From positions 2,239 through 66,238 of the forward strand of contig CAZLCG010000003.1 of NCBI GenBank assembly GCA_964557975.1: a stretch of 64,000 nt of DNA, given 5' to 3'. The notes under the pieces are model-generated. The model was not told the DNA's origin and made no database searches. It saw only the letters and a program-made list of their open reading frames with translations. The DNA is from an uncultured Eubacteriales bacterium. GTDB lineage: Bacteria > Bacillota > Clostridia > Oscillospirales > Acutalibacteraceae. Position numbers and translations under genes: made by a program. Positions 1 to 20,595 of the stretch are shown here, one piece after another. The first letter of the stretch is position 1, and each line of letters opens with the position of its first letter.

Positions 1-2650
1 TGTTATAGTTGCTCATAATATCTTCAGCAGTATTTACAACAGCATTAGCATAGGCAACATCACTCAGATAAGAAGAATATTGTGACAATTGACTCATTTT
101 ACCGGTATCACTGGTTTCACCTTCATTTGGAAGTCCATCAGCCATTACAACAATATTTTTAATATTGTCGGCTTTTCCTTGAGTGTCAAGCATATTACCT
201 GCAGTCGCCAGAGCTTCCTGCATATTTGTTGTGCCACCGGATGATATGCCTTCAATATAATCAATCAGTACATCTAAATCATTTGTCAGATCAACGCTGT
301 CAATATAATCATCATATAAAACTAAGCCAACACGGTTGTTATATTCATCTGCTAATAATTCGTTACAGAAATTAATCGCCGATTTTTTCATTTCATCAAT
401 AGGAGTACCTGACATACTTCCAGACACATCAAGCACAAGAACAGTATCTCTGCCCTGAGATGCAACACGAACATTTGTTGATTTAGTGATTGTTTTTCCA
501 TTAGAAACAAGTTCGCCCGTAATCGTGGTTGTTCCCTTACCTTTTGATGTAACAATGCATTCCTCGCCTGTAGGTGTAACAGTTGCTACCGATTCATCTG
601 ATGATGTCCATTTGATTGAATATCCTGTAGCATCTGCCGGTACTGTTTCAGGCTCAATAACATCAACTTCACCCAAAGTCAATGTCATATCTTTTGGGAT
701 AGTGAAATCATCAATTTTAACACTTCCAAAATTTGTGTAAATTGAAACAGGTTTCTCATATTGCTTGTATTTACTATCCCATATAGTTAATATTAAATAA
801 TACTCATCGCCACTTGTATTAATATCATTATCTTTAACCTTTAATCTATATCGTCCTTCATTGAGATTCAAAACATAACTGTCAGTTTCAACATCTTCAT
901 CTATAATTGTTTTCGGATTTCTTAAATCTGTCATATCACTTATAGTCAAATGATAATTTGAATAATTATTCAGATTTGTATCTTTTACATATAACTTTGA
1001 ACCTTTAAATGTAATTGATGAATTAACTGTGCTGACATCTATTCCGACCATTTCAAAAGCTTCAATAATACAATTTAATTGCTCATCTGTAATGCCTTTA
1101 AGAGTTTTTGCAGATTTATAAACACTATCTGCACACTGATTAAAAGTTGCATCGGAATGGAGAAAGTTTAACGCACGATACCAAATTTTTGCTAAAGTAT
1201 CGGTATCAATTTTTTTATTGTCTGTTCCATCAATACCATTCCACATTAAATAGCCCGCATGAGAAATAACCGTTGAATATGCATGAACATAATCTTCACC
1301 ACTTTTATTTTTGTCTGATACATTTTCAGGATATTTAGTGGATTTTGGCGAAGCTATATTTCTTTTAACGCTTATATTATCTCCTTGCATTATCCAATCA
1401 GGTTCTTTGTTATTAATCTGTCCCTCTATAATTTCTCCAAATAAATCAGAATATCCTTCATTTATTGCACCAGTTTCATTACTACCATTCCAATTCACAA
1501 TGCTTCTTGTTACAATATGAGTATATTCATGAGCCATAACATCGATATCTTCTATACCTGTTTTATATCCCATACTCATATATCCAACAGTATTTTTATT
1601 TGCTGAACCACCAACAGCATTCTGCCCATTACAATACCCATCATTGTAATATATATAAAATTCTTCATAAGGAATTTCATCATATTTGCTTTTATAAAAA
1701 TCATATATTTTTGAAAAATTATTTATATATGTAACACCTTTTGAATATTCCTCATTGATTTCATTCTGATTATTTCCAAAAACATTATCAGTACTTGTTA
1801 AAAATTCTATTTCTTTGCTTTTTTTATGTGAATTAGTTTTTTTGTATGTTGAGACATATGTATTTCTTTCATCATTATATGCCACATATTCATTATCCTT
1901 AGAATAAAAATACCCATCAAACTTTTCCGATTTATCACTATTGTAACAAGTAGCAGCATAATCGTCTTGAACCACATCAATACAATCAATAACTCTACAA
2001 GTTTTAACATCTATTACAAAATCATAGAATCCCACAGGAACTAACGCAACTAAACAATTAACAAATTCTGAATTTTGGTAAATATATAATTGACATTCAG
2101 CAATATTAGGAATATCTATATACACTTCATCAGAATCCTCAAAATTTGAATTAATATAATCTAAAATTTCATTACTAACATCCTGTTGACTCATATCATT
2201 ATGCTTGACATCAAAAGTATCACTAATATTAATCATATTAGATGTCAAGTCTGTAGCATTTCCATTTTCATCTGCAGCCACAACTACAGTCTTTCCATAA
2301 ACAGGAATGTCATTATAGTATTGTTGAAAACGATAAAAACTATCACCGTCAACTGTGTTGACGTCACAAATTTTTAATTCCTTGTCAACATCTTCAATTC
2401 CTAATGTATCTGCTACTGATGCTATTGCTTCCAAAGCTGATTTTTCATCTTTAACTGCAACATCAGTAAAGCCTTCATTCAATGATACATAATTTAAATC
2501 CGATAAATTTTCAGATGAAGTTGTACCTGAGTTTTGACCGCTGACAGCAACAGATGAATCGCTACACCCTGCAAATAACGATGAAAACACCAGCAATACG
2601 GATATAAGCACAGGTATTGTTCTTTTTAAATGATTATTTTTATTCTTCAT
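1..2650 (-). CDS. Lipoprotein (5' complete, 3' end beyond window): PepSY/FTP-like propeptide + thermolysin-like M4 metalloprotease + Big_2 Ig-like domain + vWA domain
   Basis: Not in the ORF track because its stop lies off-window. My own translation from ATG at 2650 gives MKNKNNHLKRTIPVLISVLLVFSSLFAGC (lipobox). It shows VMAHEYTHIV (HExxH) and NEGYSDLFGE (M4 Glu motif) near 1440-1540. It shows SIKWTSSDESVATVT (Big_2-like) and LVLDVSGSMSGTP (vWA MIDAS DxSxS) near 400-430. The three checkpoints are in the same frame. Confidence 0.8.
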   Translation of the reverse strand, partial: MKNKNNHLKRTIPVLISVLLVFSSLFAGCSDSSVAVSGQNSGTTSSENLSDLNYVSLNEGFTDVAVKDEKSALEAIASVADTLGIEDVDKELKICDVNTVDGDSFYRFQQYYNDIPVYGKTVVVAADENGNATDLTSNMINISDTFDVKHNDMSQQDVSNEILDYINSNFEDSDEVYIDIPNIAECQLYIYQNSEFVNCLVALVPVGFYDFVIDVKTCRVIDCIDVVQDDYAATCYNSDKSEKFDGYFYSKDNEYVAYNDERNTYVSTYKKTNSHKKSKEIEFLTSTDNVFGNNQNEINEEYSKGVTYINNFSKIYDFYKSKYDEIPYEEFYIYYNDGYCNGQNAVGGSANKNTVGYMSMGYKTGIEDIDVMAHEYTHIVTRSIVNWNGSNETGAINEGYSDLFGEIIEGQINNKEPDWIMQGDNISVKRNIASPKSTKYPENVSDKNKSGEDYVHAYSTVISHAGYLMWNGIDGTDNKKIDTDTLAKIWYRALNFLHSDATFNQCADSVYKSAKTLKGITDEQLNCIIEAFEMVGIDVSTVNSSITFKGSKLYVKDTNLNNYSNYHLTISDMTDLRNPKTIIDEDVETDSYVLNLNEGRYRLKVKDNDINTSGDEYYLILTIWDSKYKQYEKPVSIYTNFGSVKIDDFTIPKDMTLTLGEVDVIEPETVPADATGYSIKWTSSDESVATVTPTGEECIVTSKGKGTTTITGELVSNGKTITKSTNVRVASQGRDTVLVLDVSGSMSGTPIDEMKKSAINFCNELLADEYNNRVGLVLYDDYIDSVDLTNDLDVLIDYIEGISSGGTTNMQEALATAGNMLDTQGKADNIKNIVVMADGLPNEGETSDTGKMSQLSQYSSYLSDVAYANAVVNTAEDIMSNYN

Positions 2651-2673
2651 AAAACAATCCTTTCATTAAAAAT

Positions 2674-2703
2674 GCCGATTGTGTGAAAAGTCGCACAATC
2701 GGC
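2674..2703 (-). terminator. Perfect 10-bp stem hairpin (GCCGATTGTG/CACAATCGGC) with a short U-run, between the FHA-membrane gene and the M4-vWA gene; attenuator or RNA-stability element
   Basis: Inverted repeat read directly. On the minus strand it is followed by CATTTTTA. Only about 23 nt remain before the next start codon. Confidence 0.4.
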
Positions 2704-2753
2704 AATATTCAGTCAAATACAAACCAACTGTTTGCAAATAAGTATTTGTGCAA

Positions 2754-3896
2754 TTACTCCAATCGGAAAGTATTTTTATCGTTGGCAAGCTTTAATACCG
2801 TTCCCTTTGGGAAGTAGGCAATCTCACCTCTGCTGAGCTTAATATCGTTTGCCCATGTCCCGTTTGATGAATAATCGATAACGGCAAAGTTATCCGTTGC
2901 GGAACTGTATGTAACCCCACAGTGCTTTCGGCTTATTTCCTTATAGGATGGGTCTATTACAATGCTTGCCATTTTCGCGTCTTTGCCTATGATAAATTCT
3001 TCATTTGGATTAAGCTCAAAATTGTATCCACCGCAGGAACCCCTTAATCCTACAATAGTGCCTTTAAAAACCGGCAGAGTTTCTTTCATCTCGTTATTGT
3101 TTGAATTTAAAGGCTGTAAAGCAACATTTCCGATAATACTTTCATTTGAGGGATAATACTTGTATGCCATTTTATCATACGGTTTGGCTCCGTTTGAAGC
3201 AACATCCGCAAATCGGTTTAAGTTTTTAAAGACAAAATATGTTGCAAAATTCGCACCTGTTGTAAGCTCCATGCCGAAAAGCATAAGTGGAATGGAGAAA
3301 ACGAACACAAGAATAGCTGCGAAAACATATGCTCCTTCGCTGTCAGCAAGCGTAATAAGCCAAACAAGAAGCGCAGGAATAATAATTGACGAAACAATAA
3401 GAACAACCGTAACAGGTAATGTGAAAATTTCTGCAACAGTGCGGAATAAAACATTATCAGTTCCCGATTCTTTAACCTCAATATCATATCTGCCCGCATT
3501 AACCTTTAAGCGATTTGCCTGCTTATACCACCAATATTTGTGATAAATGCCGCTGATTATTGATCCCACTGCTGTAAAAATCAATCCGAATACTGCCATT
3601 GAAATAAATACACCCGCCGCTTTTATCTCTCCGTATATGTCAAAGAAATCCAAATAGCCTCCGATTCCGTCAAATGCAACAAGTCCGGCAACAAGCCCGA
3701 AAACAATACCGATAAACGAAGCTATTCCTCTGAGCATAACAGCTCCGACATAGTTAAACCTCGGCTCCTCATTATCACCGCTGCAAACGGCATCTATTTC
3801 GTCATTCACCATCATCATTTCAGCAAAGCCGTAAATACCTATTGTAATACAATTAAGGAAAATATAAAGCGGCATGCTTCTCTTTTTTATCTGCAT
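2754..3896 (-). CDS. Polytopic membrane protein with two DUF4234-like segments and a C-terminal FHA domain
   Basis: ITIGIYGF and SGIYHKYWWYKQANRL motifs (DUF4234-like), multiple hydrophobic helices. C-terminus IIGKD...EISRKHCGVTY...DYSSNGTWAN is FHA-like. Its start overlaps the upstream stop (TAATG). Confidence 0.7.
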   Translation of the reverse strand: MQIKKRSMPLYIFLNCITIGIYGFAEMMMVNDEIDAVCSGDNEEPRFNYVGAVMLRGIASFIGIVFGLVAGLVAFDGIGGYLDFFDIYGEIKAAGVFISMAVFGLIFTAVGSIISGIYHKYWWYKQANRLKVNAGRYDIEVKESGTDNVLFRTVAEIFTLPVTVVLIVSSIIIPALLVWLITLADSEGAYVFAAILVFVFSIPLMLFGMELTTGANFATYFVFKNLNRFADVASNGAKPYDKMAYKYYPSNESIIGNVALQPLNSNNNEMKETLPVFKGTIVGLRGSCGGYNFELNPNEEFIIGKDAKMASIVIDPSYKEISRKHCGVTYSSATDNFAVIDYSSNGTWANDIKLSRGEIAYFPKGTVLKLANDKNTFRLE

Positions 3897-4429
3897 TACA
3901 GAACACCTCCTTCACTTAAATCCGCAAGACCGTTTTTATTGTAAACCTCAGCTGCTTCATTGGTATTCTTGATAAGTTCATACGCCGAAATAAATCCAAA
4001 GCAAACTATTTCAAGCGCGGCAATTTCCTTACCCGTGGTTTCCATTTTAAAGCCGTAACGCGGAGCGTTTGCCCTGAGACGCTTTGCAAGCTTGTAGGTC
4101 CAATAAATACGATACATACCGAAAGTGAACAGACTGAGTAAGAAAGCAGTCAAAAAGCTTTCCGACTCCTCGCCGTCACCCTCGCACATAGTATTGATGT
4201 CGAGAGATAAACGGTAATTAAAATAAATTTTATACAGATTTCTTGTAAATAAGGTTACAAACGCAGCCGAAGCAAGCGTAACAAAAAGCATGGTTGCCTG
4301 CGCGGCGATTCCCTGAGTGATGATTGTAGCGACAATTCCCACTACAAGTCCGAAGCACAAGCCGATGCCGAGATTTATAAAGGATGACAAAATGAATTTT
4401 GTCATGCTTCTCTCTTCGATTTTTTCCAT
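3896..4429 (-). CDS. DUF4234-like membrane protein, paralogue of the N-terminal part of 2754..3896
   Basis: FTFGMYRIYWTYKLAKRLRANAPRYG motif and TM helices. It shares the loop motif C-x-GD-x-EE with the neighbouring gene. Confidence 0.6.
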   Translation of the reverse strand: MEKIEERSMTKFILSSFINLGIGLCFGLVVGIVATIITQGIAAQATMLFVTLASAAFVTLFTRNLYKIYFNYRLSLDINTMCEGDGEESESFLTAFLLSLFTFGMYRIYWTYKLAKRLRANAPRYGFKMETTGKEIAALEIVCFGFISAYELIKNTNEAAEVYNKNGLADLSEGGVL

Positions 4430-4445
4430 AATTTTTCTCCCTTTA

Positions 4446-5051
4446 TTATTCGTCTTTATCAGTTTCTTTTTTTACGCTGTCCCAGTTAAACTTCGCGGAA
4501 CAGCAGGGAATAAACAGTAAATTAGTTTCACCGAGCGATAAAACATCATAAGAAGAAATTTTTGTCGCCTCTAAAACAACTTTTTCGTTCAAATAAAACA
4601 ACTGCTTTGCTTCACCGGGCTGAACCAAAAACATATTACTTTTCGGCTCATAAAGTATTATTGCATGCTTTTCTCTTGAAATTGAATTATCCTTTTCCAA
4701 GGCAACATCCATTTCCGAGGAACGACCGATAAAGTTTCTTCCCGCTTTAAGTTTAAAATCTTGTCCCAAATGCTTTCCCGAAATTGCTACAAGCCAACCT
4801 ACAACAGGTTCCACATCTTCGGCACCGAGATCATCGTAAATACCGACAGTTTTTGAAAACTCTTCAACATCGGGTTCGGGAATAGGTTCGGTTATTTCGG
4901 GCTCAGGAGGCGTTAAAGGCTGCGTATAGAGATTATCTTCTCCATTTTCGCCCTCAACAACGGTACTGATCCTTGTCTGATTGCAAAACGGACATTCCGA
5001 GAACCGTTCCGCATCATAAAAATGACCGCTTTCACATCTGATTAAATTCAT
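4446..5051 (-). CDS. Zinc-ribbon + (degenerate) FHA domain protein
   Basis: N-terminus MNLIRCESGHFYDAERFSECPFCN, acidic/Pro linker, C-terminus FIGRSSEMDVAL...SISREKHAIILY. Start chosen at ATG 5051, preceded by AGGAGAAGG. The ORF track extends to 5123. Confidence 0.65.
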   Translation of the reverse strand: MNLIRCESGHFYDAERFSECPFCNQTRISTVVEGENGEDNLYTQPLTPPEPEITEPIPEPDVEEFSKTVGIYDDLGAEDVEPVVGWLVAISGKHLGQDFKLKAGRNFIGRSSEMDVALEKDNSISREKHAIILYEPKSNMFLVQPGEAKQLFYLNEKVVLEATKISSYDVLSLGETNLLFIPCCSAKFNWDSVKKETDKDE

Positions 5052-5109
5052 TTTTTCCTTCTCCTTTTTTATATTTTTATAAAAACAGTATTTGACTCCA
5101 ATACTGTAA

Positions 5110-5967
5110 TTAACTGAAATCATTAAACTTGATAATTATTACAGATGTATTATCCTGACCGCGCAAATCCTTGCTTAATACGCAATCGGTAAGAGCAGCC
5201 GCACATTGCTTCATATCTTCGCTCACGGAAGACACTACTGCCAACATTTCATCCATGTCTAATGCACGGTACAGACCGTCGCTGCACAATAAAATACAGT
5301 CACCGTCAAACAGCGGAAAAGGCTTGGTATTTATATCAATATACTTTACTCCACCCATTCCGATATAACTTACAAGTGCGTCCTTTTGGGGATTTTTATC
5401 AGCCTCATCCCGTGTTATTTCACCTTTAATAACCTTATCATTCAGTATCATTGAATAATTATGGTCATGTGTTATACATCTTATTTTATTGTTGCGAATA
5501 ATATAAATCCTGCTGTCCCCTACAGATAACCAGTTCAATTTACCGGAATCAACAGCAATGCTCACCAATGTTGTTCCCGAATTTAACAAACTGCCGTCAT
5601 CGCTTTTCAAGCACCTCACCGACAAATCGAGATCTTGAACAATTCTTCTGTAAAATGTTGAAATATCATCATTCTTTCTTATTTTATGAAAGGAATCATT
5701 AAGCAAAGACGCACAGGTGAAGCTTGCTTTTCTTCCACCGTTAAGTCCGCCCATACCGTCACACAGAGTAGCTATAGCACGTCCGTTTTCGTAATACATA
5801 TACTCATCATCAGCTATAACGGTATCCTGCTGTTCTTTTCTTTTTCCTATAACAGATGAAAGACCAATATCCAGACTGTTCGCAACACCCGCAAGCTCAA
5901 TTGTTTTTAACCCGTCGAAATCCTCAAAGTCGTTATTAACTTCTGTCAATAAAACATCTCCAATCAA
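5110..5967 (-). CDS. PP2C-family Ser/Thr phosphatase (paralogue 3)
   Basis: ATLCDGMGGLNGGRKAS, LLCSDGLY and DNTSVIIIK motifs. TTG start overlaps the kinase stop by 4 nt. Confidence 0.85.
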   Translation of the reverse strand: MIGDVLLTEVNNDFEDFDGLKTIELAGVANSLDIGLSSVIGKRKEQQDTVIADDEYMYYENGRAIATLCDGMGGLNGGRKASFTCASLLNDSFHKIRKNDDISTFYRRIVQDLDLSVRCLKSDDGSLLNSGTTLVSIAVDSGKLNWLSVGDSRIYIIRNNKIRCITHDHNYSMILNDKVIKGEITRDEADKNPQKDALVSYIGMGGVKYIDINTKPFPLFDGDCILLCSDGLYRALDMDEMLAVVSSVSEDMKQCAAALTDCVLSKDLRGQDNTSVIIIKFNDFS

Positions 5968-7394
5968 TCAAAATCAACAACAAACATATACTGTTTTACC
6001 GCTGTATAAAACTTAGTGCCCGGAGTGATTTTATACTCAACATTTTTTTTGAGCCTTGTTCCGTCCTCAAAATAAGTTCCGTTTGAGGACGTATCGCATA
6101 AAAACAAATCGTTTCCGCTGAATCTTATGTAACAATGATTCCTTCCCGTTACATTCTTAGAGTCGTTAATAACATAACTGCACCCCATGGGAACCCGCCC
6201 TATAATAAATTTGTTCTTTCGACCAATCATTGTTTTGTTGTATCTTTTATTACCTTTTATTTCTGCAAGATACGGATATTTTGTAATTTTAAACTCCGGC
6301 GTGGATTTAGGAAGCTTGACCGGCTGCAACAACGGCTTTGAGAGAGCAGGCGGCTTGGGAGACGTCGGCGGAATTGGGGGCATTGACGGTTTAGAATGAG
6401 CCGACGGCTTGGAAGGCGTAGCAGATTTAATATTTATACCGCTCAAATCGTTAAGCAATGAAACAAAATCCTGATACCTTTTTTTATAATCCAAGGAAAG
6501 CCCTTTATCTATTACATCAGATATCTTCGTTGAAACATTGCATCCCATGCTTTTAAGCGTGGGTTGTGGAGTCCCCCTGTATCTGTACAGAGCGTCAACC
6601 AAAGGTTGACCTGAAACTATGTTATAAAAAGTAGCGCACAGAGCATAAACATCACTCCAGGGACCTTGATTTCCATTTGTGCTGTATTGTTCCGGAGGAG
6701 CAAATCCGGGCTTGAGCAATATAGACATACCTTTATTCTGTAGACTTACATAATTCCTCGCAGCACCGAAATCAATCAGCTTTATTCCTCCGTTACTCGT
6801 AACAATGATATTTTCCGGGCTTATATCTCTATGTAATATGTTCTTTTTATGAATTTCCATAAGAGAACTGGCAACGGTTACAAACACCTCATATGCAAAA
6901 TCGGGATCAAGCTTTCCTCCATTTAAACGTGCCCTTCTTCTTAAATCCATCCCGTCAAGATATTCCATTACCAAATATGCTGTATTATTCTGTGAAAAAT
7001 ATGCGTATATATTAACAACTGTCGGATTACCCTGCAGATTTAACAAGGTTCTTGCCTCATCCATAAATTTTTCGCGCCCGTGTGCAAAAACGTTTCGTGA
7101 TTTTGTATCGGAAAAAGGCTCAATATTGAATGTATTATCGCATCTTTTTGAATACTCGGACGGCATATATTCCTTAATCGCACATAATTTACCGTATTGG
7201 TTATCCAATGCAATATAAGTAATACCGAATCCGCCTCTGCCGAGGACACGTCCAATTAAGTATCTATTATTAAGCAGAGTAAATTCAGGTAATACTCCCG
7301 AAAACTTTTTTCGATTAATCAAATCGTATCCGCAGTGTGAGCATCTTGATTCATTTGTTAACTTTTGAAAACAATTAGGGCACAATTTTTCCAT
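5964..7394 (-). CDS. Hanks-type Ser/Thr kinase with N-terminal zinc ribbon, Pro-rich linker and C-terminal FHA domain; no TM segment seen
   Basis: CPNCFQ...CSHCGY; GRGGFGITY...CAIKEY; HRDISPENI; DFGAAR; GFAPPEQ; linker SKPSMPPIPPTSPKPPALSKP. C-terminus IIGR...GRNHCYIRF...DTSSNGTYFEDG. ATG 7394 has GGGAG 8 nt upstream. The ORF track starts at GTG 7403. Confidence 0.85.
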   Translation of the reverse strand: MEKLCPNCFQKLTNESRCSHCGYDLINRKKFSGVLPEFTLLNNRYLIGRVLGRGGFGITYIALDNQYGKLCAIKEYMPSEYSKRCDNTFNIEPFSDTKSRNVFAHGREKFMDEARTLLNLQGNPTVVNIYAYFSQNNTAYLVMEYLDGMDLRRRARLNGGKLDPDFAYEVFVTVASSLMEIHKKNILHRDISPENIIVTSNGGIKLIDFGAARNYVSLQNKGMSILLKPGFAPPEQYSTNGNQGPWSDVYALCATFYNIVSGQPLVDALYRYRGTPQPTLKSMGCNVSTKISDVIDKGLSLDYKKRYQDFVSLLNDLSGINIKSATPSKPSAHSKPSMPPIPPTSPKPPALSKPLLQPVKLPKSTPEFKITKYPYLAEIKGNKRYNKTMIGRKNKFIIGRVPMGCSYVINDSKNVTGRNHCYIRFSGNDLFLCDTSSNGTYFEDGTRLKKNVEYKITPGTKFYTAVKQYMFVVDFD

Positions 7395-7418
7395 AATAAA
7401 CACTCCCTTAAAGCAACG

Positions 7419-8153: not shown

Positions 8154-8215
8154 AGCAAAACCTCCGTTAAATATTGCTCCCGAGGCTGCATTTCAGCAGC
8201 CCCGTTTTATTTTGA

Positions 8216-14200: not shown

Positions 14201-16123
14201 ATCAATTTTAAAATTGCCGTTCTCATCAACATCGCTATTTATCGTGCTACCATCTTCAAGAACAGCCTCTACTCTTTCTACGCCCGAATGCTCATCTATC
14301 ACCCTGCCTTCCACAATTACATCTTTATTCGTAAATTCATTTTCATTACAATTACTGCTGAGCGACATAATAACACAATTTGTATTATCCATTTTAACGC
14401 AAAAGCTTGTTTCCGTTTCATTACCTGCTTTATCTGCACAAACGAGATAAATATTACCTTCATATGTCTGCGCATTAATAGAAAGGGTGTATTTACTGTC
14501 ATCTTCATCATATTCTAATGTCGCACCATCAACTGTCGCACCATCAACAGCTTCTTTAATTTCAACGCTTTTAATTCCCGAAAGATTATCGGAAACATAT
14601 CCTTCAATTTTTATACCTTTATTGGTCCAATCCGTAATTTTAAATTCAGCACCATCACTGTCCTTAATCGTTAAACTTTCCTCATTAAATTCAGGCCCGG
14701 TTTTGTCAACAAGAATTTTAACTTTATCTTCTGCAATATTTCCCGAGAAATCAACAGCATAGATATAATAATAATTCGTTTCATTATTCGTTTCATTGCT
14801 TACAATAATTTTATATTTACCGTTTTCGTCCACTTTTGCCGATTCAAGTTTAGAAATGTTTTCTATGGTTACATTTTCAATCTCTTTAACGGAGTAATAC
14901 ACACCGCTGATGCCGGAGATATATTTAACGCCGTTACTTTCCGTACCTTCGTCAATCACAGAAAACTCGACCGTAACATCACTATTTGTATATTCCTCAT
15001 TATCTGTAAGTTCGCTGATTATGGGCGCAGCATTATCCATAGCATATAGATTTGTTTTATCTAAAGTAATGTTTTCTGTATTAAGAGAAAAACCTATAAA
15101 CTGCTCGTAAACTCCGTCAGCATTCCAGTCAAACATATAGTAATTATTAACAGAAGAATAATTATTAAGAACGTCCTCATTAATAAAAGCCCACATGGTT
15201 ATGTAGCGTTCAATGTCTTCCTCTGAATTTATGTCAGAGTCCTGCGCGTTCCAAAAACTCTTTTCATCAGACCACTCATCATAACCGTTATACAGAGTCT
15301 CGTACTTTACAGCTTTAAGTTCATCAACAGACATACCTTCGGGCGCGGTTACCTTAATACCTGCCCACCAGCCGTCCGATGTCCTGCCGATTGAGGCGTC
15401 AGCCTGTGACCATTGAAGGGTCAACTCACCGTTATTTGTAACAGTAACAACATTTCCGGCCGAACCTTCAACTTCCATAACATCTGCGCCTGTAATTGCT
15501 TCAACATTACCGAGGGAACTTGAAGAGTATACCTGCTCGCCGTCCTTATTCAGCGCTACACAATTAGCGTCAATGCTAAAGGAAATTTCTTGCTCATAGA
15601 TTCCGTCATTATCCCAATCGAATTTATAGCAATTATCAATATATTTGTCGTTATATATAGCATAATTAAGCACTTTTTCATTTATAAAAGCCCACATAGT
15701 TATATAGCGTTCAATTTCTTCCTCTGAATTTATGTCAGAGTCCTGCGCATTCCAAAAGCTCTTCTCATCAGACCACTCATCATAACCGTTATACAGAGTC
15801 TCGTACTTTACGGATTTAAGTTCATCAACAGACATACCTTCGGGCGCGGTAATTTTAATTCCTACCCACCAACCATCGGACGATCTGCCGATCGAGGCAT
15901 CAGCGGCCGTCCAGTCAAGGACAATACTGTCGTTATATATAACAGTAATATTACTCTTATCCTCATCATTAACCACCGCGCAGGACGGTTCGGTTATTGC
16001 AGAGACTTGTCCTAAATTAACATCTTCCGCAGCATATGTATTTACAACAGGAAATGATGTAAACAACATAAGTAACGCTAAAGAAACCGTTAAAATCTTA
16101 TGACCTAATTTAAAGTTTTTCAT
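8216..16123 (-). CDS. Giant (2,635 aa) secreted, C-terminally membrane-anchored repeat protein with many Ig-like/adhesin-type modules
   Basis: Signal peptide MKNFKLGHKILTVSLALLMLFTSFPVVNTYA. Recurrent D(K/N)AGN and TAPxxxV module boundaries. C-terminal TM helix followed by KRKKDKDEEEA, with no LPXTG. Large internal DNA repeats. Confidence 0.85.
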   Translation of the reverse strand: MKNFKLGHKILTVSLALLMLFTSFPVVNTYAAEDVNLGQVSAITEPSCAVVNDEDKSNITVIYNDSIVLDWTAADASIGRSSDGWWVGIKITAPEGMSVDELKSVKYETLYNGYDEWSDEKSFWNAQDSDINSEEEIERYITMWAFINEKVLNYAIYNDKYIDNCYKFDWDNDGIYEQEISFSIDANCVALNKDGEQVYSSSSLGNVEAITGADVMEVEGSAGNVVTVTNNGELTLQWSQADASIGRTSDGWWAGIKVTAPEGMSVDELKAVKYETLYNGYDEWSDEKSFWNAQDSDINSEEDIERYITMWAFINEDVLNNYSSVNNYYMFDWNADGVYEQFIGFSLNTENITLDKTNLYAMDNAAPIISELTDNEEYTNSDVTVEFSVIDEGTESNGVKYISGISGVYYSVKEIENVTIENISKLESAKVDENGKYKIIVSNETNNETNYYYIYAVDFSGNIAEDKVKILVDKTGPEFNEESLTIKDSDGAEFKITDWTNKGIKIEGYVSDNLSGIKSVEIKEAVDGATVDGATLEYDEDDSKYTLSINAQTYEGNIYLVCADKAGNETETSFCVKMDNTNCVIMSLSSNCNENEFTNKDVIVEGRVIDEHSGVERVEAVLEDGSTINSDVDENGNFKIDENGNFKITVFARSYEGQLTVNAYDNAGNGAKAAEGISSLSIDLYMDNEIPTVSVSDPVEEDVKWTNEDVTVSGTVTDNLSDIKAVYYAEENSIDELTIDELTLEYLEAKCSKANFNETENTYEFTIKNEDNYEGNYVIYAVDKAGNISEEKTVAVKMDITAPNDVKINYDGDNISVIEEILSNLFWFYQTSCKVTLSSTDNLSGIKSFEYSLDGGKTFTTIDKESDGNSYKFIESEKSAEASFSIDPQFREKVIASATDKAGNKSNDTIDDKTIVVDSKVPEITVEYTSQAGNANYVDKDNKSVEDLASAERVYYNNSVSATIIIEEENFFEGQVETVKDKDGNVVENRTVHEVGILVEKTIGDKITYIEYLPKNEEGAQQAERKYSDEYEVDYVEWSSNKTSYTTELEFNDDADYKLIVEYTDYSGNNADYKSKLITVDTTAPEIEITYGDEKSDDRVGEGYFLNRTATITVEEHNFDKSAFSAEITAKDIAGNTTISDTAAKKDLEANQWRDDGDTHTLVISYTDDANYTFALNGLEDFAGNNYLTNEKNEGSIYDKDAETPDSFVVDKEAPSDVVIDYSENHTVLETIRNIVFWFFNPSKDEENLGKCTVTLTTTDMTSGLQYFTYSYNGNYTDIHTENIEDENVAKEKGFKVNDSNPSEFTYIFEIPAQFRGKVTASATDNAGNKSNDTIDDKTIVVDSEAPEISVSYSKPANAAEDNSKGINYFSDDVTVTVTVNEENFMDGEYPEDVIDMNITADILGDDETETQESYVVENWTRDDTNQWVGSFTLSTEGDYTLSISYADKSGNEVSYSNSDYPITIDKTAPVVSVEYDNNNVSEKALNETYFNANRTATITVVEHNFAPEYLEDNISIIANSILTENDENEQISTKATEKLAEITDINNWNKEEENNTYTYKIDYTDDAIYDFALISFKDYAKNEMNPDNENKVIYADGTVSPESFVVDTEAPSDVVIDYSENHTVLETIRNIVFWFFNPSKDEENLGKCTVTLTTTDMTSGLQYFTYSYNGNYTDIDIQTENIEDKNVAKEKGFEVNDSNPSEFTYSFEIPAQFRGKVTASATDNAGNTTAKETESEKTIIVDSEAPEISVNYSDPANAAKDNSKGINYFSDDVTVTVTVNEENFMDGEYPEDVIDMNITADILGDDETETQESYVVENWTRDDTNQWVGSFTLSTEGDYTLSISYADKSGNEVSYSNSDYPITIDKTAPVVSVEFDSISPVHTIDGREYYDTNRSAIIKVTEHNFSPEYFDTEDILKALDILGNNVTNYNEYFKKEDNWETDTTDPTGNTHTIEVDFKSDANYTFDFDFVDLAKNNFVFTDDLNNSLNDYPAYLFTVDKTSPKNLSVSYSSNVFETVINAITFGYYDSIMKVTVSADDDTTGVYHIMYSYLTATGVSDVNAQLVNDAISKAEITRDGRTSTAVFSIPKSSLERNSQFNGTVEFTAYDYAENNTYEADTKRVIVDNISPTASITFNEPVQNVNNISYYAGDINATVSINEANFYSQDVEVTVTNNGSIYPVSVNWVDNSVDRHTGTFRITGDGDYIVKIAYSDRSGNDMVTYESNQLTIDTVDPVITVSGINHQSANNDETIGFNVSVTDKNIDVNAFKPELSAVIRNAAGELETIKISLGDPSISINDKGETVYTYTIQNLSVDGFYSLICSAVDYSNHSINIINSGQDNGTTSSEETLNFSVNREGSTFWIETTYNDKYTDNVFLNELDNAYANDKVEIIVHELNVDPVDISDNIDEQTVFAMYNGAETDYITLSEGTGSADNYVKNTLRGAGGWYETLYTLNNENGNFNDDGVYSFSILSFDRAGNSNLNTKSDSGVIKFTVDRTNPVITSNIYEDQIVEAESHTVEFEINDANPDVNTVEVSINGEVVPSESVINISGNIYNVEMSEGNKQSISITSKDLAGNPSEQYEISGITVSTSPLVLFYYSYTVVFWAIVAGILALAFLILLIVFKRKKDKDEEEA
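10498..11315. repeat. Copy 1 of a near-identical ~0.8-kb intragenic direct repeat (partner 11698..12506, period ~1.2 kb)
   Basis: Line-by-line comparison shows long identical runs with a few substitutions and one 9-nt indel. Both copies encode ...APSDVVIDYSENHTVLETIRNIVFWFFNPSKDEENLGKCTVTLTTTDMTSGLQYFTYSYNGNYTDI... Confidence 0.85.
11698..12506. repeat. Copy 2 of the ~0.8-kb intragenic direct repeat
   Basis: See copy 1. Confidence 0.85.
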
Positions 16124-16480
16124 TTTTTTCCTCCGTTAAGTTATTATATATATTTGCTATATTTTTTAGCTGTGTTTGAAACAGAATACCTATCTCTGAT
16201 TTGATTCGGCTCCGGTGCTTAATTGATTTGTACCCCATCTCGAAAATACAACAAGAACAGATTGTTTTTTGCCGCATTTATGACAAAACATAATTATGTT
16301 CTAAATTGAGGGAATTAAACAATGCGGCTCTTTCTGATTGAGAATCTGCATCGCCTTTGATTCAACGTTATTATTAACATTTTTCTTCTTTTGGCAACTG
16401 TTATGATGTTTAAACAGTAATAATATTCACATTGATGTTTTGTAAAACTGAAACCAATATATCAAAAGCAACAATAAAAA

Positions 16481-16936
16481 TTATTTACTGTTTTTATAAA
16501 ATGAACTGTTATACATTTTTCCGTTTAAAATACAGTGCATACAAAATGAAAATGAAAATAATGAAATCAAAACATAACAAAAATATCCCGTCGCATCCGT
16601 AAATATAAGCATAATTATGAATAAAACCAAACTAATAACAAAAATCAAATCAAAAATTGCGGCAAGCTTGTTTTTAAAAAAAGATATCGCACCAAAAAAT
16701 TTACAATCAGTTAATTTTCTGTTATTTGATTTTTTTTTGTAAAATGAATACAATATTATTTGCAAAACGCATCCCGAAATTAACGGAAGCCAAAATAAAG
16801 TACCCGTTAACACTTTAAACAAACTCATATTCTTTTCAATATTGTTTCCTATCGGCATTATTAAAAAATCACACGCCATTAAAAGAAAACATATAACGGA
16901 AATCAATAAAATAATTCTCTTTTTTTGTGCAGTCAT
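16481..16936 (-). CDS. Small polytopic membrane protein (about 4 TM), unknown family
   Basis: Hydrophobic segments throughout. The start directly abuts the upstream stop. Confidence 0.5.
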   Translation of the reverse strand: MTAQKKRIILLISVICFLLMACDFLIMPIGNNIEKNMSLFKVLTGTLFWLPLISGCVLQIILYSFYKKKSNNRKLTDCKFFGAISFFKNKLAAIFDLIFVISLVLFIIMLIFTDATGYFCYVLISLFSFSFCMHCILNGKMYNSSFYKNSK

Positions 16937-17341
16937 CTATATCACCTCGTTGGTACAAACAAAAGTAATATCTTTTTCAATAATAAAATCCGAATTAATT
17001 GCTTTCGCTTTATTTTTTAAAACAACAGTCTCTGATTTGTTTACGCTTGTTTGATTACCGCCGTTTTCGTCCGTCAATGTCTTTATCCTGATGCTCTGTG
17101 AAGGTGTTTTTCTCGGCTTTGCTTTTCTTTCCAAATCTTCAAAAACATTAATTTTATTCCTGCTGTCAGCATTATTTCTTCGCATAGCACGAATTTCATC
17201 AATCTGCTTTTGCTCCAAGGTGCCGTGAGAATCTTTCCATAATGTAGGTATTTTATAAGCAATAAACATCGTTACCGATGTAATAAAAAAGCAAACCGCA
17301 AGAATAACACTTACTATACCCAATGTCAATAAATTTTGCAT
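16937..17341 (-). CDS. Single-pass membrane protein (N-terminal TM, basic/polar tail), unknown family
   Basis: LTLGIVSVILAVCFFITSVTMFIAY followed by a charged tail. It lies 10 nt downstream of the kinase gene. Confidence 0.5.
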   Translation of the reverse strand: MQNLLTLGIVSVILAVCFFITSVTMFIAYKIPTLWKDSHGTLEQKQIDEIRAMRRNNADSRNKINVFEDLERKAKPRKTPSQSIRIKTLTDENGGNQTSVNKSETVVLKNKAKAINSDFIIEKDITFVCTNEVI

Positions 17342-17351
17342 TTATATACCT

Positions 17352-19178
17352 CTATATTTTCTCAATGTTGCATCCGTAAGAGCTGTTGACCATTTTTATT
17401 GTGTTGTTAAGGCTATTCCTTATCCCATCAATCTCTTGCAGCTTCGATTCGTCATTTTCAAAATTTTTTTCCGCGTTGCTTAAAGCCAACGAAAACTCTT
17501 TGAAATATTCTGACATTTCATTTTCGTCAATCTTATTTGTTTTGATTTGGAAGTCAGCGCGATTTTCTTCTAAGATATAAGCCAACCTTTTAAGTGTTTG
17601 TATCGTTACGCTGTCGTACATTTCCGCATCGCTGGTGACAAGTGATAATAAATTTTTGTTGGTAACCCAAAATGAATAATACGGATCTTCAATGGTGTTA
17701 TCATCAAGTATCCCGTACGCTCCCGCATACCTTGCAGCTTCATCAAACTGAAATTCATCGCTGTCATCATTGTTAAATTTATCCTTATGATTTTGAAAAT
17801 ATGATAACAGATAATATGACTTGACTAGGTTATATTTTTTTTCGGATAAGCCTCCGTATTCAACATCGCTTTCTTCAGCAGACAGAATTATGTTTCTAAA
17901 ATACTCCTCCGCCTTTTTTTCACCGATGTACGATTGGTCTGACGCATCCTTAAAATCATTCCAATAAGCTCTTCCGACTTCATACAAGACCGAAATATAT
18001 GTTTCGAGCGAACTTTCTTTTAATTCGCTCAGATTTTCGGTTTCTATACATTTTTTTATACTGCTTTCAACTATTGCGCCCGCAGGGAGGGTTTCGGCAT
18101 CATAACCCTCAGGCATAGATGAATATATAACCGAAACATCTTTTTTCAGCTTGTTTGCAAATCCGATATATGCATCTGTTTTACTGTTATCTATTTCTAT
18201 TGCAGACTGATAGCCCTCAAAAGTATTAAGGTCAACATATGCTTGATAGTTGTTATTTTTTACAGAATTTGCTCCTGTCAAAAAGCCAACAGATAAAACA
18301 GTAAAAACGAAAGTAAGGACCGTAACAGCCAAGAACTGATTTATACGTGATTTTAATTTTTTCTTATATGCGCCTTCAAATTTTTCCAAATTCTCAAGGA
18401 CATATGTTACTTCCGCAAACGACTGATACCTGTCTTTCGGATTCAGCTGCGTACACTTTTGTATAAGCCATTCCAAACCACTTGACAATGAAGGGTCCCA
18501 ATGCCTTATCGGATAAATCTCATACGGCGGCTCTGACGGGTTTTTTCCTGTAACAAGATGATAAAGCGTAACTCCGAAGCTGTAAATATCCGTTCTTGCG
18601 TCAGTCTGCCCCTTTCCTCCGAACTGTTCCGGCGCCGCATAACCCCTTGTGCCAATCCACTCGGTATCGCCCTCCTGCCCCTCCTTATATTCGCGTGCAA
18701 TACCGAAATCAAAGAGTCGTATTGTTCCATCCGGTTTGAGCATTATGTTGGCAGGCTTCATATCGCGATAGATTACAGGCGGATTTTGAGTGTGTAAATA
18801 GTCAAGCACCTCGCTGAGTTGTTTTGCCCATTCTATAACGGCATCCTGCGGTTGAGCGCCATATGCGGAAAGCACCTTGTTTAGCGGTTCGCCTTCTATA
18901 TAGTCCATTACAATGTATACGCTTTTATTTTCCTCAATAATATCAACTATTCTGGGTAATGTCGGATGATCGAGCTTTTTCATTATATTTGCTTCGTGCA
19001 GTAATGCTTCCAAATTCATCTTATTAACGGCATCGTGCTCATCCTTACGGAACTCTTTTATTGCCCATTGTCTGTTAAGGCGCTTATCCATTGCCAAATA
19101 AACAACAGACATACCGCCTCTTCCGATTTCACGGATGATTTCGTATTTACCATCAATAACATCATTAATATGAGCCAA
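17352..19178 (-). CDS. Transmembrane Hanks-type Ser/Thr kinase with an unassigned ~300-aa extracytoplasmic helical domain
   Basis: GRGGMSVVY...WAIKE; YRDMKPANIML; DFGIA; GTRGYAAPEQ; TM FLAVTVLTFVFTVLSVGFLTGA. TTG start with GGGAGA upstream. Confidence 0.85.
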   Translation of the reverse strand: MAHINDVIDGKYEIIREIGRGGMSVVYLAMDKRLNRQWAIKEFRKDEHDAVNKMNLEALLHEANIMKKLDHPTLPRIVDIIEENKSVYIVMDYIEGEPLNKVLSAYGAQPQDAVIEWAKQLSEVLDYLHTQNPPVIYRDMKPANIMLKPDGTIRLFDFGIAREYKEGQEGDTEWIGTRGYAAPEQFGGKGQTDARTDIYSFGVTLYHLVTGKNPSEPPYEIYPIRHWDPSLSSGLEWLIQKCTQLNPKDRYQSFAEVTYVLENLEKFEGAYKKKLKSRINQFLAVTVLTFVFTVLSVGFLTGANSVKNNNYQAYVDLNTFEGYQSAIEIDNSKTDAYIGFANKLKKDVSVIYSSMPEGYDAETLPAGAIVESSIKKCIETENLSELKESSLETYISVLYEVGRAYWNDFKDASDQSYIGEKKAEEYFRNIILSAEESDVEYGGLSEKKYNLVKSYYLLSYFQNHKDKFNNDDSDEFQFDEAARYAGAYGILDDNTIEDPYYSFWVTNKNLLSLVTSDAEMYDSVTIQTLKRLAYILEENRADFQIKTNKIDENEMSEYFKEFSLALSNAEKNFENDESKLQEIDGIRNSLNNTIKMVNSSYGCNIEKI

Positions 19179-19196
19179 AATAATTTCTCCCTACAA

Positions 19197-19967
19197 TCAG
19201 TAAATTGTTTTAATCAATATTGCCGTTATGTTATCTTTCTCGTTTCTCTTCTTGTTAAGATTTACTAAATCAACAAGACTTTTTCTCATTATTCTCTCAC
19301 TTGACATAAGCTCAGGCGCTAAAACGCCGAATATCTCTTCGCTCGAGATCTCATGTCTAAATCCGTCACAACACAATAAAAACTCATCATTTTCTCTTAT
19401 ATCACCTGTTTTAAATTCACAGTCTATATTTTTTGACGCGCCTATACATTGAAGCAATATATTCTTTCTTTTATCTGTCTTAGCTTGATCCGCAGTCATT
19501 CTGTTATGAACCACCTCATTAGCTACAAAGGTGTGATCGGTTGTTATTTGTTCAATGCTATTGTTTAACCTATATATTCTTGTATCACCGATGTGAATTA
19601 AAATAAATTTATTATTAACGCACAAAATTGCGGAAAGGGTCGTTCCTAAGGAAATACCTCTTGCGTTTCCGTATTCCGATATTTTTTCACTCTGTGAAAT
19701 CGCTATACTGTTCCATTGCTTCTTTATCACTTCAAAATCCAAGCCTGTTTTTAATGCTTCTGGGAACACCTGTTCAAACCAATTTGAAAAAGCGTTAACA
19801 ACAAACGCACTCGCAAGTTCCCCGTTTTTAAGGCCTCCCATCCCGTCGCACAAAACAACAAACGCAATATTATACCTTGATGTTTTTGCAATCTTCAATG
19901 TAAATGAATCCTGATTTATTTTTTTTACTAACCCTATATCTGTATGGGCGGCAGATAAATATCTCAT
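19197..19967 (-). CDS. PP2C-family Ser/Thr phosphatase (paralogue 1)
   Basis: VVLCDGMGGLKNGELAS, LLCCDGF and DNITAILIK motifs. Confidence 0.85.
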   Translation of the reverse strand: MRYLSAAHTDIGLVKKINQDSFTLKIAKTSRYNIAFVVLCDGMGGLKNGELASAFVVNAFSNWFEQVFPEALKTGLDFEVIKKQWNSIAISQSEKISEYGNARGISLGTTLSAILCVNNKFILIHIGDTRIYRLNNSIEQITTDHTFVANEVVHNRMTADQAKTDKRKNILLQCIGASKNIDCEFKTGDIRENDEFLLCCDGFRHEISSEEIFGVLAPELMSSERIMRKSLVDLVNLNKKRNEKDNITAILIKTIY

Positions 19968-19981
19968 TATACAGTCCTCAC

Positions 19982-20524
19982 TTATTCTTCAATATAAAAT
20001 TGATACAGCTCATCTCCGAAAGCAATTAAATCACCGTTATCAATTGAAATCATTTTCATAGGTTCAATCGTTGCGCCTTCAACTTGAGTTCCGTTTGTCG
20101 ACCCATTATCAGTAATATAAAATTCATCGGGTCCTTTTATAAAAATCGAAGCGTGGTTATTACTTATGCTTGATTTGCAAATTCTGAAATCCGCATTGTT
20201 TCCGCTGCCTACAGTAAAAATTTGCTTATAAATTCTAACTTTTTCTCCTGATAACGGATTTATAATAAATATATTGCTTGAAGATTTTGCAGCATTTTTT
20301 TCGATTGCTTTTGTTTCAATATTATTAAGCAAAACCGTTTCGTCAGAATTACTCAAATCATTACCGTTAAGCAGAACAGTTTCTCCGAAATTCTCACTTA
20401 CAAAACCGTTTAATTTGACAGTATCGTCAAAATTGTTATTATAATAAGAGGAAACATTTTCAGAATTATGATCAGCGCCCGAATTTTTTTGTTTTTTTGA
20501 AAATAAGTTCTTAAACATATTCAT
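19982..20524 (-). CDS. FHA domain protein (disordered N-terminus, C-terminal FHA)
   Basis: FTVGSGNNADFRI...ISNNHASIF...DNGSTNGTQVEG. Confidence 0.8.
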   Translation of the reverse strand: MNMFKNLFSKKQKNSGADHNSENVSSYYNNNFDDTVKLNGFVSENFGETVLLNGNDLSNSDETVLLNNIETKAIEKNAAKSSSNIFIINPLSGEKVRIYKQIFTVGSGNNADFRICKSSISNNHASIFIKGPDEFYITDNGSTNGTQVEGATIEPMKMISIDNGDLIAFGDELYQFYIEE

Positions 20525-20594: not shown

Positions 20595-20595
20595 T

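Follow-up and report, generated by a model that had tools for sequence, protein, structure and literature searches.

Conserved kinase, phosphatase and FHA gene arrays of uncultured Clostridia and a recombinase-carrying cassette predicted to switch their expression

We analysed a 64,000-nt stretch of DNA from an uncultured Eubacteriales bacterium (assembly GCA_964557975.1, contig CAZLCG010000003.1, positions 2,239 to 66,238; hereafter the window). The 13 co-directional genes that occupy positions 1-20524 of its minus strand are a co-conserved unit and not a chance adjacency. According to the list of open reading frames (ORFs) and their translations, this array encodes three PP2C phosphatases, two Hanks kinases, four FHA modules, DUF4234 membrane proteins and a 2,635-aa surface protein. 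The unit measures about 21 kb or more and belongs to uncultured, Ruminococcus-like Clostridia of the gut. We consider it probable that the array is a dedicated, conserved and phase-variable envelope operon, and an invertible promoter cassette most likely governs the whole of it. With about even confidence we hold the joint reading, in which the array is a phase-variable, phosphothreonine-organised envelope module and one conserved, horizontally portable Oscillospirales operon. An earlier note on this DNA had already described the 13 co-directional genes and their domains, and Pfam supports each of its domain calls; its span, however, ended at position 20524, and a recombinase and inverted-repeat cassette at 20566-21994 lay outside it.

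Results

Conservation of the array across lineages

The same gene order recurs in at least ten species-level lineages, all represented by metagenome-assembled genomes (MAGs), at about 40-60% identity, the markers dropping to 40-50%. This result rests on distant members found on long contigs, on a species-level scan, and on tblastn comparison of all window proteins with all loci (designated here by L numbers). The scan, which used contigs from one genome per species, gave at least 11 confirmed cases among the 599 pattern matches listed, and the taxonomic census is a lower bound. The earlier note had allowed that the adjacency might be fortuitous and had proposed a neighbourhood comparison; since the same set is colinear in all these lineages, it is not. 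In every locus with enough flanking sequence (L002-L007 and L019-L028), we found the colinear series giant gene, PP2C, kinase/FHA, PP2C, Zn-ribbon/FHA, DUF4234, DUF4234/FHA and Big_2/vWA.

The order in the relatives begins with a giant protein of 2,900-3,200 aa and PP2C244 (array proteins are named by domain and length), optionally followed by an FHA gene and a gene for a vWA protein with a transmembrane (TM) helix and an FHA domain (vWA-TM-FHA). It goes on with kinase-FHA, PP2C, Zn-ribbon-FHA, DUF4234 and DUF4234-FHA, and its optional 3' genes encode trypsin-TM-FHA, X-TM-FHA, and a protease head followed by Big_2-vWA-TM-FHA. The window array is a reduced variant, many relatives having the extra FHA and vWA-TM-FHA genes between PP2C244 and the kinase, and L002-L005 carry a further kinase at the array end. 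The upstream module (FHA, PP2C, a kinase of about 610-634 aa, two TM proteins and the giant protein) is kept in L011 and L013. PP2C244 and the Zn-ribbon-FHA protein are the best conserved components, with roughly 55-88% identity. The named carriers, again all MAGs, are uncultured Ruminococcus sp., Faecousia sp., Oscillospiraceae, Eubacteriales, Family XIII and 'Clostridia'. One uncultured Ruminococcus MAG (CAYQXN01) holds two diverged arrays (L020 and L025), with DUF4234-FHA markers 77% and 47% identical to that of the window.

This DUF4234-FHA marker was found in at least 166 clusters (90% identity), down to 42% identity, and a profile search of 1.84 billion representatives returned about a dozen full-length DUF4234-FHA clusters at 50% identity. 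So small a full-length family points to a narrow, lineage-specific system. By tblastn we obtained no match in plasmids and, in phages, only distant integrases with less than 43% identity. Mobile-element genes are located beside the array or its cassette at L019:16238-21149, L011:5655-9603, L020:17613-20369 and L031:9475-16776; the flanking genes of this type include a 398-aa integrase, relaxase/MobC, DUF6076, DUF6809, a serine recombinase, a HEPN/NTase pair and Fic. These neighbours fit horizontal movement of the cassette together with its cargo.

A recombinase gene between inverted repeats precedes the array

Directly upstream of the first gene, FHA180, we identified a 1,429-bp cassette (20566-21994) bounded by 29-nt inverted repeats whose arms are 1371 nt apart and complementary at 28 of 29 positions. 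The outer repeat (21966-21994) has the core CGTAGAACT and an internal palindrome, AGAACT-TGC-AGTTCT, and the inner repeat (20566-20594) lies 41 nt upstream of the FHA180 start codon. An independent promoter would not fit into so short a distance before the ATG at 20524. The longest exact inverted repeat measures 23 nt, whereas in 200 Markov simulations the longest averaged 13.1 nt and never exceeded 18, and the core occurs at the two cassette repeats only within the 64 kb. G+C content is 31-39% in window 1-22000 and 42-49% in the remainder, with a sharp step at about 22000, just beyond the outer repeat; cassette and array therefore have a common composition, unlike the flanking chromosome.

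The cassette encodes a 363-aa tyrosine recombinase (20673-21764, minus strand; Phage_integrase E = 2e-29, Phage_int_SAM_3) whose translation contains the R...HxxR...H...Y motifs. Its true start is the ATG at 21764, three codons downstream of the start of the 366-aa mechanical ORF, and the exact 363-aa product is on record. In NCBIfam it obtained Xer-like and DNA-invertase-like scores, all below the curated cut-offs. After the recombinase stop, still inside the cassette, comes an intrinsic-terminator-like hairpin (20603-20637, minus strand) with a 14-bp stem and a T-run, which is also present in L009; none was detected at this place in L013 or L011. At the other end of the cassette we predict a promoter, P_out (21906-21935, plus strand; TTGACA-18-TGaTAAAAT), with an extended -10 element (11 of 12 positions match, TG present). 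P_out points away from the operon in the window, so that the cassette appears to be OFF, a reading well supported by the orthologues and by the consensus character of the promoter. The window cassette thus has the structural features of an inverton: repeats beside an operon and a site-specific recombinase encoded in cis within the segment.

Orthologous cassettes are found in both orientations

Recombinase homologues with 50-75% identity are likewise flanked by repeats with the core CGTAGAACT, with 1,360-1,410 nt between the arms. In L011 and L013 the cassette fronts the same FHA array, the upstream module and the recombinase recurring together at 53% and 67% identity, respectively. An identical recombinase (P0144) is encoded in the same direction as the array in L013, L015 and L016 but stands inverted with respect to both flanks in L017. 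When L013 and L017 were compared by blastn, a 1,411-bp segment aligned in the same orientation (99.6% identical), the flanks were swapped and reversed (98.9-99.8%), and the breakpoints fell inside the inverted repeats. A cassette in front of a Tad-pilus operon behaves in the same way, being co-directional in L034 and inverted in L033 and L035 (1,486-bp segment 100% identical, flanks 99.1-99.6%). In addition, L012 is a 1,445-nt contig that runs exactly from repeat to repeat, the contig of L010 ends exactly at a repeat, and many recombinase homologue clusters have a longest contig of 1.34-1.47 kb. Such repeat-bounded contigs fit mixed orientation.

The motif ATTGACA-17/18-TGnTAnAAT is found at the same place in six cassettes (window, L009, L011, L013, L031 and L034), where the predicted promoter sits about 20-30 nt inside the outer repeat and points outward in each case. 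This promoter faces the cargo in the inverted cassettes of L017, L031, L033 and L035, and away from it in the co-directional state. Sister cassettes (L009:9775-11201, L031:7774-9196 and L033/L034:7748-9233) front other types of cargo, namely type VII secretion system (T7SS) operons with EssC and WXG100 (L009, L010) or with EssC and LRR_5 proteins (L031), and a Tad/Flp pilus operon (L033-L035). The recombinase-promoter cassette looks like a portable phase-variation module for envelope machines. In L002 we did not find the repeat core CGTAGAACT, and the locus there holds only the last 72 nt of the integrase gene.

Some strains of the L013 lineage carry deletions (L014:11523-13218 and L018) in which the kinase is cut at residue 281 and the giant protein is left as an internal 248-aa fragment fused to unrelated DNA, with the cassette, FHA and PP2C genes kept. 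Judging from these contigs, the deletions represent a within-species presence/absence polymorphism.

Organisation of the array in the window

In transcription order, the distances between the array genes are 14, 18, 10, 0, 357, 62, 15, -4, 58, 16, -1 and 103 nt. The earlier note had presented the 357-nt gap before the giant gene as the sole exception to spacing below 65 nt; this gap stands, but a second one, of 103 nt, precedes the M4 gene. The longer gap (16124-16480) is lineage-specific, being reduced to 39 nt in L011 and to an 8-nt overlap in L013. Its sole promoter-like site (16397-16370) is weak, it lacks a terminator, and Rfam gave no match over 1-22.4 kb at E <= 0.1, leaving it without a known riboswitch or leader. 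Between the DUF4234-FHA gene and the protease gene there is a GC-rich hairpin followed by a U-run (2673-2704, minus strand; z = -3.2). A hairpin with a U-run also follows the DUF4234-FHA gene at L020:11384-11415, L019:11202-11237, L004:11229-11270 and L006:11052-11097; three of the five lineages have homologous sequences there, and two have different ones. The window hairpin is likely a terminator or attenuator that sets the ratio of signalling-gene to ectoenzyme-gene expression.

Pfam matched FHA in the 180-aa protein, the Zn-ribbon protein and the DUF4234 fusion (E = 6e-16, 1.5e-5 and 3.5e-8), PP2C_2 in three proteins (E = 1e-14 to 8e-10), Pkinase in the two kinases (E = 1e-53 and 1e-33) and DUF4234 in the 177-aa and 380-aa proteins (E = 4e-22 and 8.5e-10). 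By eye, the catalytic motifs were intact in the translations, both the metal-binding residues of the PP2Cs and the Lys, [H/Y]RD and DFG motifs of the kinases. No array component reached a curated equivalog cut-off in NCBIfam, where the only domain to pass its cut-off was an OmpL47-type barrel domain of the giant protein, and the FhaB/FipA family scored 39 bits against a cut-off of 125. Genes for a type VI secretion system (T6SS), EssC/WXG100, sortase or MoxR are absent from window 1-22 kb, and the corresponding statement of the earlier note holds for that span.

Signalling proteins

FHA180 (19982-20524, minus strand, as are all array genes below) has a disordered N-terminus followed by the FHA domain. 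The disordered part contains three (D/E)TV(K/L)LN motifs, at residues 33, 47 and 61, and the orthologues have three to five. Among the 13 array proteins, motifs of the (D/E)TV(L/I)LN type occur only in FHA180 and TM134 and are kept in their orthologues; the other 11 contain no motif of the TV-L-N type. FHA domains bind phosphothreonine (pThr) with selectivity at +3, and a phosphorylated Thr followed by a hydrophobic residue at that position is a classical ligand of theirs. FHA180 could therefore be a multivalent pThr hub on which FHA domains dock after its phosphorylation.

The next two genes encode PP2C256 (19197-19967; 256 aa, PP2C_2 E = 5e-14, with DGMGG, GDTR, DG and DN motifs in the translation) and a receptor-type Hanks kinase, STK608 (17352-19178), composed of a kinase domain, one TM helix (residues 282-300) and a helical ectodomain of about 300 aa. 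This ectodomain has no Pfam match and no sequence match in the PDB. A single-sequence AlphaFold2 model of it reached a pLDDT of 62, and Foldseek returned generic helical repeats, none at E <= 0.001. Against the NCBIfam family PknB_PASTA_kin, STK608 scored 213 bits (cut-off 450), with the kinase domain alone aligning.

Further downstream are PP2C244 (7419-8153; 244 aa, 58-85% identical in relatives, and among the two best-conserved array genes) and the cytoplasmic kinase STK479 (5964-7403), which consists of a Zn-ribbon, a Hanks kinase domain, a Pro/Ser/Thr-rich linker and an FHA domain and has no TM helix. Its C-terminal FHA domain was unlisted in the whole-protein Pfam scan and obtained 34 bits (E = 4e-8) when scanned alone. 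PP2C285 (5110-5967; 285 aa, Pfam PP2C_2) and the Zn-ribbon-FHA protein (4446-5051) follow. The latter has 201 aa, also in the annotation of L001, the mechanical ORF being 225 aa with a start at 5123; it carries a CxxH...CPFC ribbon and then an FHA / Yop-YscD_cpl domain.

Membrane and surface proteins

Two small membrane proteins separate STK608 from the giant protein: TM134 (16937-17341), a single-pass protein with a conserved ETVVLKN motif that is 64% identical in L011, and the polytopic TM151 (16481-16936), with orthologues in L011 and L013. The giant surface protein (8216-16123; 2,635 aa) has a Sec signal peptide, Ig-like and OmpL47-type repeats, and a C-terminal TM helix. It ends in an 11-residue tail of K/R/D/E, and the C-terminal anchor is kept in L004, L006, L019 and L020; a PDB sequence search with the protein gave no match. 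Its gene contains a tandem duplication of about 1.2 kb with 94-99% nucleotide identity (10493-11344 and 11693-12535) and an N-terminal 501-nt duplication with 87% identity (15161-15419 and 15662-15920). These duplications are potential substrates for recombinational length variation of the fibre.

The 177-aa DUF4234 protein (3896-4429) is followed by DUF4234-FHA380 (2754-3896; 380 aa), in which a polytopic DUF4234 domain is joined through a disordered linker to a cytoplasmic FHA domain of the tail type. In the AlphaFold2 model of this protein (pLDDT 79), Foldseek found a match for the FHA domain only, the helical membrane domain having no solved relative. The last gene, cut by the window start (1-2650), encodes a lipoprotein-type signal peptide, FTP, Peptidase_M4_C, Big_2 and VWA domains. 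Its motifs are intact, both those of the protease (HEYTH, NEGYSD) and the metal ion-dependent adhesion site (MIDAS; DVSGS...T...D, with DxSxS). The earlier note had called the product an M4-protease/Big_2/vWA lipoprotein, and the domains and the lipoprotein-type signal peptide are borne out. However, the relative in L020 (11438-15157), with 82% identity over the part that starts at Big_2 and 41% over the signal peptide, is bitopic and runs 379 aa beyond the point where the window protein is cut, with a TM helix and an FHA domain. The window protein is therefore unlikely to be a simple lipoprotein, and a fifth FHA domain probably belongs to the array; the TM helix and FHA tail would lie beyond the window edge.

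The protease heads themselves are non-homologous, with an M4 (thermolysin) head in the window and an S8 (subtilisin) head plus CarboxypepD_reg in L020; elsewhere the head is S8 in L019, M4 in L006 and missing in L004. Swaps of this kind imply that the Big_2-vWA scaffold accepts unrelated protease heads.

A hydropathy scan of the relatives revealed five kinds of protein in which a signal peptide or polytopic domain, an ectodomain and one TM helix are followed by a cytoplasmic FHA tail of about 150 aa: protease-Big_2-vWA, trypsin, vWA, a 788-aa lipoprotein and the DUF4234 protein. The tails of these membrane proteins are an FHA subfamily of their own, with the signature GKD...SRxHC...SSNG. The vWA, the protease and the giant protein are predicted to be extracellular, and the kinase, PP2C and FHA parts intracellular. 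Tail-type FHA domains, often with about 90 upstream residues, were present in more than 1,000 representative proteins at E <= 1e-10, mostly of 250-440 aa and without a DUF4234 domain (P0257-P0388 listed). By these matches, tail-type FHA proteins appear to be a large uncharacterised family that extends beyond the array.

Neighbouring genes

Beyond the array, the window encodes ordinary clostridial chromosome functions, for example AdhE, SipL, amidase, FeoB and GH95. The gene that adjoins the cassette on its outer side and is convergent with P_out (22219-25881, minus strand) encodes a 1,220-aa BspA-type LRR_5 protein with a C-terminal DUF5648, a domain it has in common with a 638-aa SH3_3 protein encoded at 36393-38309 (minus strand). 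LRR_5 proteins belong also to the switched T7SS-type operon of L031. The Logan contig of the same strain (L008) breaks near window position 22272.

A working model

We infer the following biochemical role for the array. The 363-aa tyrosine recombinase would flip the 1,429-bp cassette between its 29-nt repeats, and after inversion P_out would lie about 90 nt upstream of FHA180 and drive the array. One long mRNA would extend from FHA180 to DUF4234-FHA, with the hairpin attenuating read-through into the protease-vWA-FHA gene. STK608 and the cytoplasmic Zn-ribbon-kinase-FHA protein would phosphorylate the TxxL motifs of FHA180 and TM134, and the FHA tails of the membrane proteins and the Zn-ribbon-FHA adaptor would dock on the phosphorylated sites. 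This docking would cluster protease and MIDAS-vWA heads at the membrane beside the giant fibre, where they might process the fibre, hold it, or act with it on a ligand; the three PP2Cs would dissolve the cluster. In relatives the FHA-tailed set also includes trypsin-TM-FHA, vWA-TM-FHA and X-TM-FHA proteins. We put forward the docking hub as a tentative mechanism. Somewhat more doubtful still is that the whole amounts to a new Gram-positive surface organelle, with FHA-tailed exo-enzymes and adhesins on a multi-pThr hub beside a giant Ig-repeat fibre, run by kinases and PP2Cs and switched by an inverton. The variable protease head and the phase variation suggest that the array acts where the cell meets its host, phages or competitors, for example in adhesion or aggregation with proteolytic maturation or shedding.

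Comparison with described systems

The array resembles the ArnA/ArnB/ArnC-ArnD/PP2A system of Sulfolobus acidocaldarius in its Zn-ribbon-FHA protein, vWA, Hanks kinases and Ser/Thr phosphatase (PMC6509490, PMC7472852, PMC12852372). ArnA (Zn-ribbon-FHA) and ArnB (vWA) form a phosphorylation-dependent complex (PMC6509490, PMC12852372), the output of which concerns a surface appendage. The 201-aa protein has the Zn-ribbon plus FHA architecture of ArnA, a likeness of architecture only. However, the vWA of ArnB is cytoplasmic and regulates gene expression, whereas that of the array is extracellular and protease-fused, and in relatives is followed by a TM helix and an FHA tail. The Arn system uses PP2A where the array has PP2C, and includes no giant protein, DUF4234 or inverton. 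A soluble ArnB-like vWA partner is not encoded in the window, and the vWA-TM-FHA proteins of relatives have an exported vWA.

Linked vWA, PP2C and Hanks kinase genes, sometimes with FHA, are also typical of TerY-P modules, for which a phosphorylation switch has been proposed; the E. coli operon yegI/K/L is related to them. The TerY-P triad of Anantharaman et al. 2012 is composed, in the summary that PMC11090510 gives of it, of a TerY-like vWA, a PP2C and a kinase with a C-terminal Zn ribbon, and DRA0331-0334 of Deinococcus is a related operon (bioRxiv 10.64898/2026.01.23.701218). TerY-P systems have three or four cytoplasmic or simple components, in contrast to the array with its 13 or more genes, exported vWA, dominant FHA and surface-protein cargo. 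Of the TerY-P features, the array has PP2C in the operon (three genes). It lacks a cytoplasmic vWA beside PP2C and kinase, the sole vWA in the window being predicted extracellular, and a C-terminal Zn ribbon on the kinase, the ribbon of STK479 being N-terminal and STK608 having none.

The analogy that the earlier note drew with PpkA/PppA/Fha1 of the Pseudomonas aeruginosa H1-T6SS does not go beyond domain-level resemblance. In that system too, a TM Hanks kinase, a PP2C and an FHA protein, with an extracytoplasmic vWA, exert post-translational control of an envelope machine. There, however, the vWA is within the PpkA kinase itself, while the array belongs to a Gram-positive host and has FHA as tails on several ectoproteins. 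We found no T6SS core gene (TssA-M, Hcp, VgrG) among the 13 genes or the neighbours scanned, and TagH-type FHA scored 20.5 bits against 120. The EssC FtsK/SpoIIIE ATPase and WXG100 proteins of T7SSb are absent from the window array, T7SS operons being found behind the sister cassettes of L009 and L031. Nor does the kinase have the PASTA repeats of PrkC/PknB/Stk1, its ectodomain being without a Pfam match.

The combination of a disordered N-terminus with Thr motifs and an FHA domain relates FHA180 to GarA/OdhI and to Bdellovibrio DgcB (PDB 6hc1), in which phosphorylated tails bind an FHA domain. FHA180 is not a member of the OdhI family (24 bits against an NCBIfam cut-off of 200), and its three to five TxxL motifs suggest multivalent scaffolding, not a single autoinhibitory switch.

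With known invertible promoter switches (Salmonella hin-fljBA, E. coli fimS, C. difficile RecV-dependent cwpV/flgB/cmrRST and gut invertons; PMC5903667, PMC11892184, PMC6837544), the cassette shares inverted repeats, a site-specific recombinase and surface cargo; it has a predicted promoter in the segment, and its orthologues exist in both orientations. Its layout is that of Hin, with the recombinase gene inside the invertible segment, although Hin is a serine and the cassette enzyme a tyrosine recombinase. The cassette measures about 1.4 kb, compared with about 200-650 bp for the invertons given as examples in PMC11892184, and unlike the invertons compared it is portable and fronts three unrelated machine types. 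In the literature searched we found no published description of a recombinase-carrying inverton before T7SS or Tad operons; such an absence is not proof.

Discussion

The earlier note had suggested an undescribed Gram-positive envelope system. Co-conservation, the outside/inside topology and the lack of a description of the array in the literature that we searched, which again is not proof, agree with this suggestion, but the note had missed the cassette, the FHA tails and the head swaps. The features that we regard as new are the FHA-tailed ectoproteins, the swappable protease heads, the multivalent TxxL hub and the portable, self-contained switch of about 1.4 kb.

Several observations weigh against the phase-variable, phosphothreonine-organised module as we propose it. 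Concerning the switch, inversion was seen in orthologous cassettes and not in the window copy; the sole other assembly of the window strain, L008, has the cassette in the same orientation, and two scans of metagenome contigs for the window repeat, with and without flank, gave no match. P_out is predicted from a consensus match only, and in the co-directional state read-through from the recombinase promoter is possible in L011 and L013, where we detected no terminator. Concerning the docking, we infer TxxL phosphorylation and FHA-tail binding from sequence; FHA180 itself has Gly-Ser where FHA domains usually have Gly-Arg, and the FHA domain of the Zn-ribbon-FHA protein lacks the Asn-Gly motif. 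The cytoplasmic tail of the giant protein contains no Thr, the protein is tied to the signalling parts by gene order alone, and the L002 array, with its signalling and DUF4234 genes, has no giant gene.

An anti-phage or inter-microbial conflict system, that is, a TerY-P-like kinase/PP2C/vWA cassette with protease effectors on a phase-varied mobile island, seems unlikely to us. Stand-alone defence has been reported for TerY-P-like modules (PMC11090510), many defence loci are phase-varied, the island has a low G+C content and is flanked in relatives by relaxase, DUF6076 and integrase genes, the locus is deleted in some strains, and the M4 versus S8 swap between close relatives is of the kind seen in diversifying effectors. 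The vWA and protease, however, are placed behind signal peptides and outside the cell, unlike the cytoplasmic TerY-type vWA; intracellular effectors such as a nuclease or an NTPase are missing from the array; most lineages have a Sec-exported giant Ig-repeat protein among the colinear core members; and the sister switches control surface organelles (pili, T7SS). PADLOC did match both kinases and two PP2Cs to PD-T4-6, mad6 and PDC-M21C, but these are generic kinase and PP2C folds and no other component matched, and we do not read them as placing the array among defence systems. The secretion and pilus machines behind the sister switches, together with the FHA domains carried by T7SSb EssC and the two conserved polytopic DUF4234 proteins of unknown function, might instead suggest a new secretion or assembly machine for the giant protein, with DUF4234 as conduit and FHA/kinase gating as in T6SS/T7SS. 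The membrane-anchored protease also resembles the ESX mycosin, a likeness that we treat as a lead only. We find such a machine improbable, given that none of the 13 genes encodes an ATPase or other energy source, that the giant protein is equipped for Sec export by a classical signal peptide and anchored by a C-terminal TM helix, that the L002 array does without it, and that Foldseek matched the DUF4234 membrane domain to no known translocon.

About equally improbable is a role of the recombinase as integrase of a mobile island with the array on board, in place of a phase-variation invertase. The phage-integrase family of the enzyme, its 31-43% identity to integrases in phage records, the low-G+C island, the different chromosomal contexts of the array across species and the other mobile-element genes near it in relatives would all suit an integrase. 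The repeats, however, are inverted and not direct, and they bracket the recombinase gene only; inversion with intact flanks was observed in two orthologous cassettes; and the outward promoter is conserved in a cassette that also fronts unrelated T7SS and Tad operons. The two roles are not exclusive, as cassette and cargo may have moved horizontally as a unit. The reading to which we give the least credence, and which we think very improbable, is that the genes have no joint function and are ordinary envelope Ser/Thr modules (PrkC/PrpC-like or FhaA/FhaB-like) beside an adhesin and a secreted protease. Firmicutes and Actinobacteria do commonly have clusters of kinase, PP2C and FHA genes, STK608 is similar to PASTA kinases in its kinase domain, and L013 has an FHA-FtsW-PBP cluster a few kb away. 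STK608, however, has no PASTA domains and falls well short of the family cut-off, and FHA tails are fused to the ectoproteins themselves. The tight spacing behind one switchable promoter and the tiny DUF4234-FHA family both fit a dedicated, lineage-specific system. The conservation data, with order and content kept at 40-60% identity, count strongly against this reading.

To our knowledge, linkage of vWA, FHA, PP2C and Hanks-kinase genes is widespread among bacteria and archaea, and very few such sets have a known function. The probably phase-variable envelope operon described here ties such a module to identifiable extracellular parts, namely a giant fibre and swappable protease and MIDAS-vWA heads, and its predicted natural ON/OFF switch would be a source of isogenic expressing and non-expressing cells for experiments. 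The ectodomain-TM-FHA proteins suggest that Gram-positive bacteria may position surface enzymes from the inside through pThr docking. Finally, an inverton of about 1.4 kb that carries its own recombinase gene and, in gut Oscillospirales, precedes T7SS and Tad operons as well as the array would represent a new class of phase-variation element, one that may escape inverton surveys tuned to shorter elements and that is relevant to colonisation, immune recognition and phage susceptibility.

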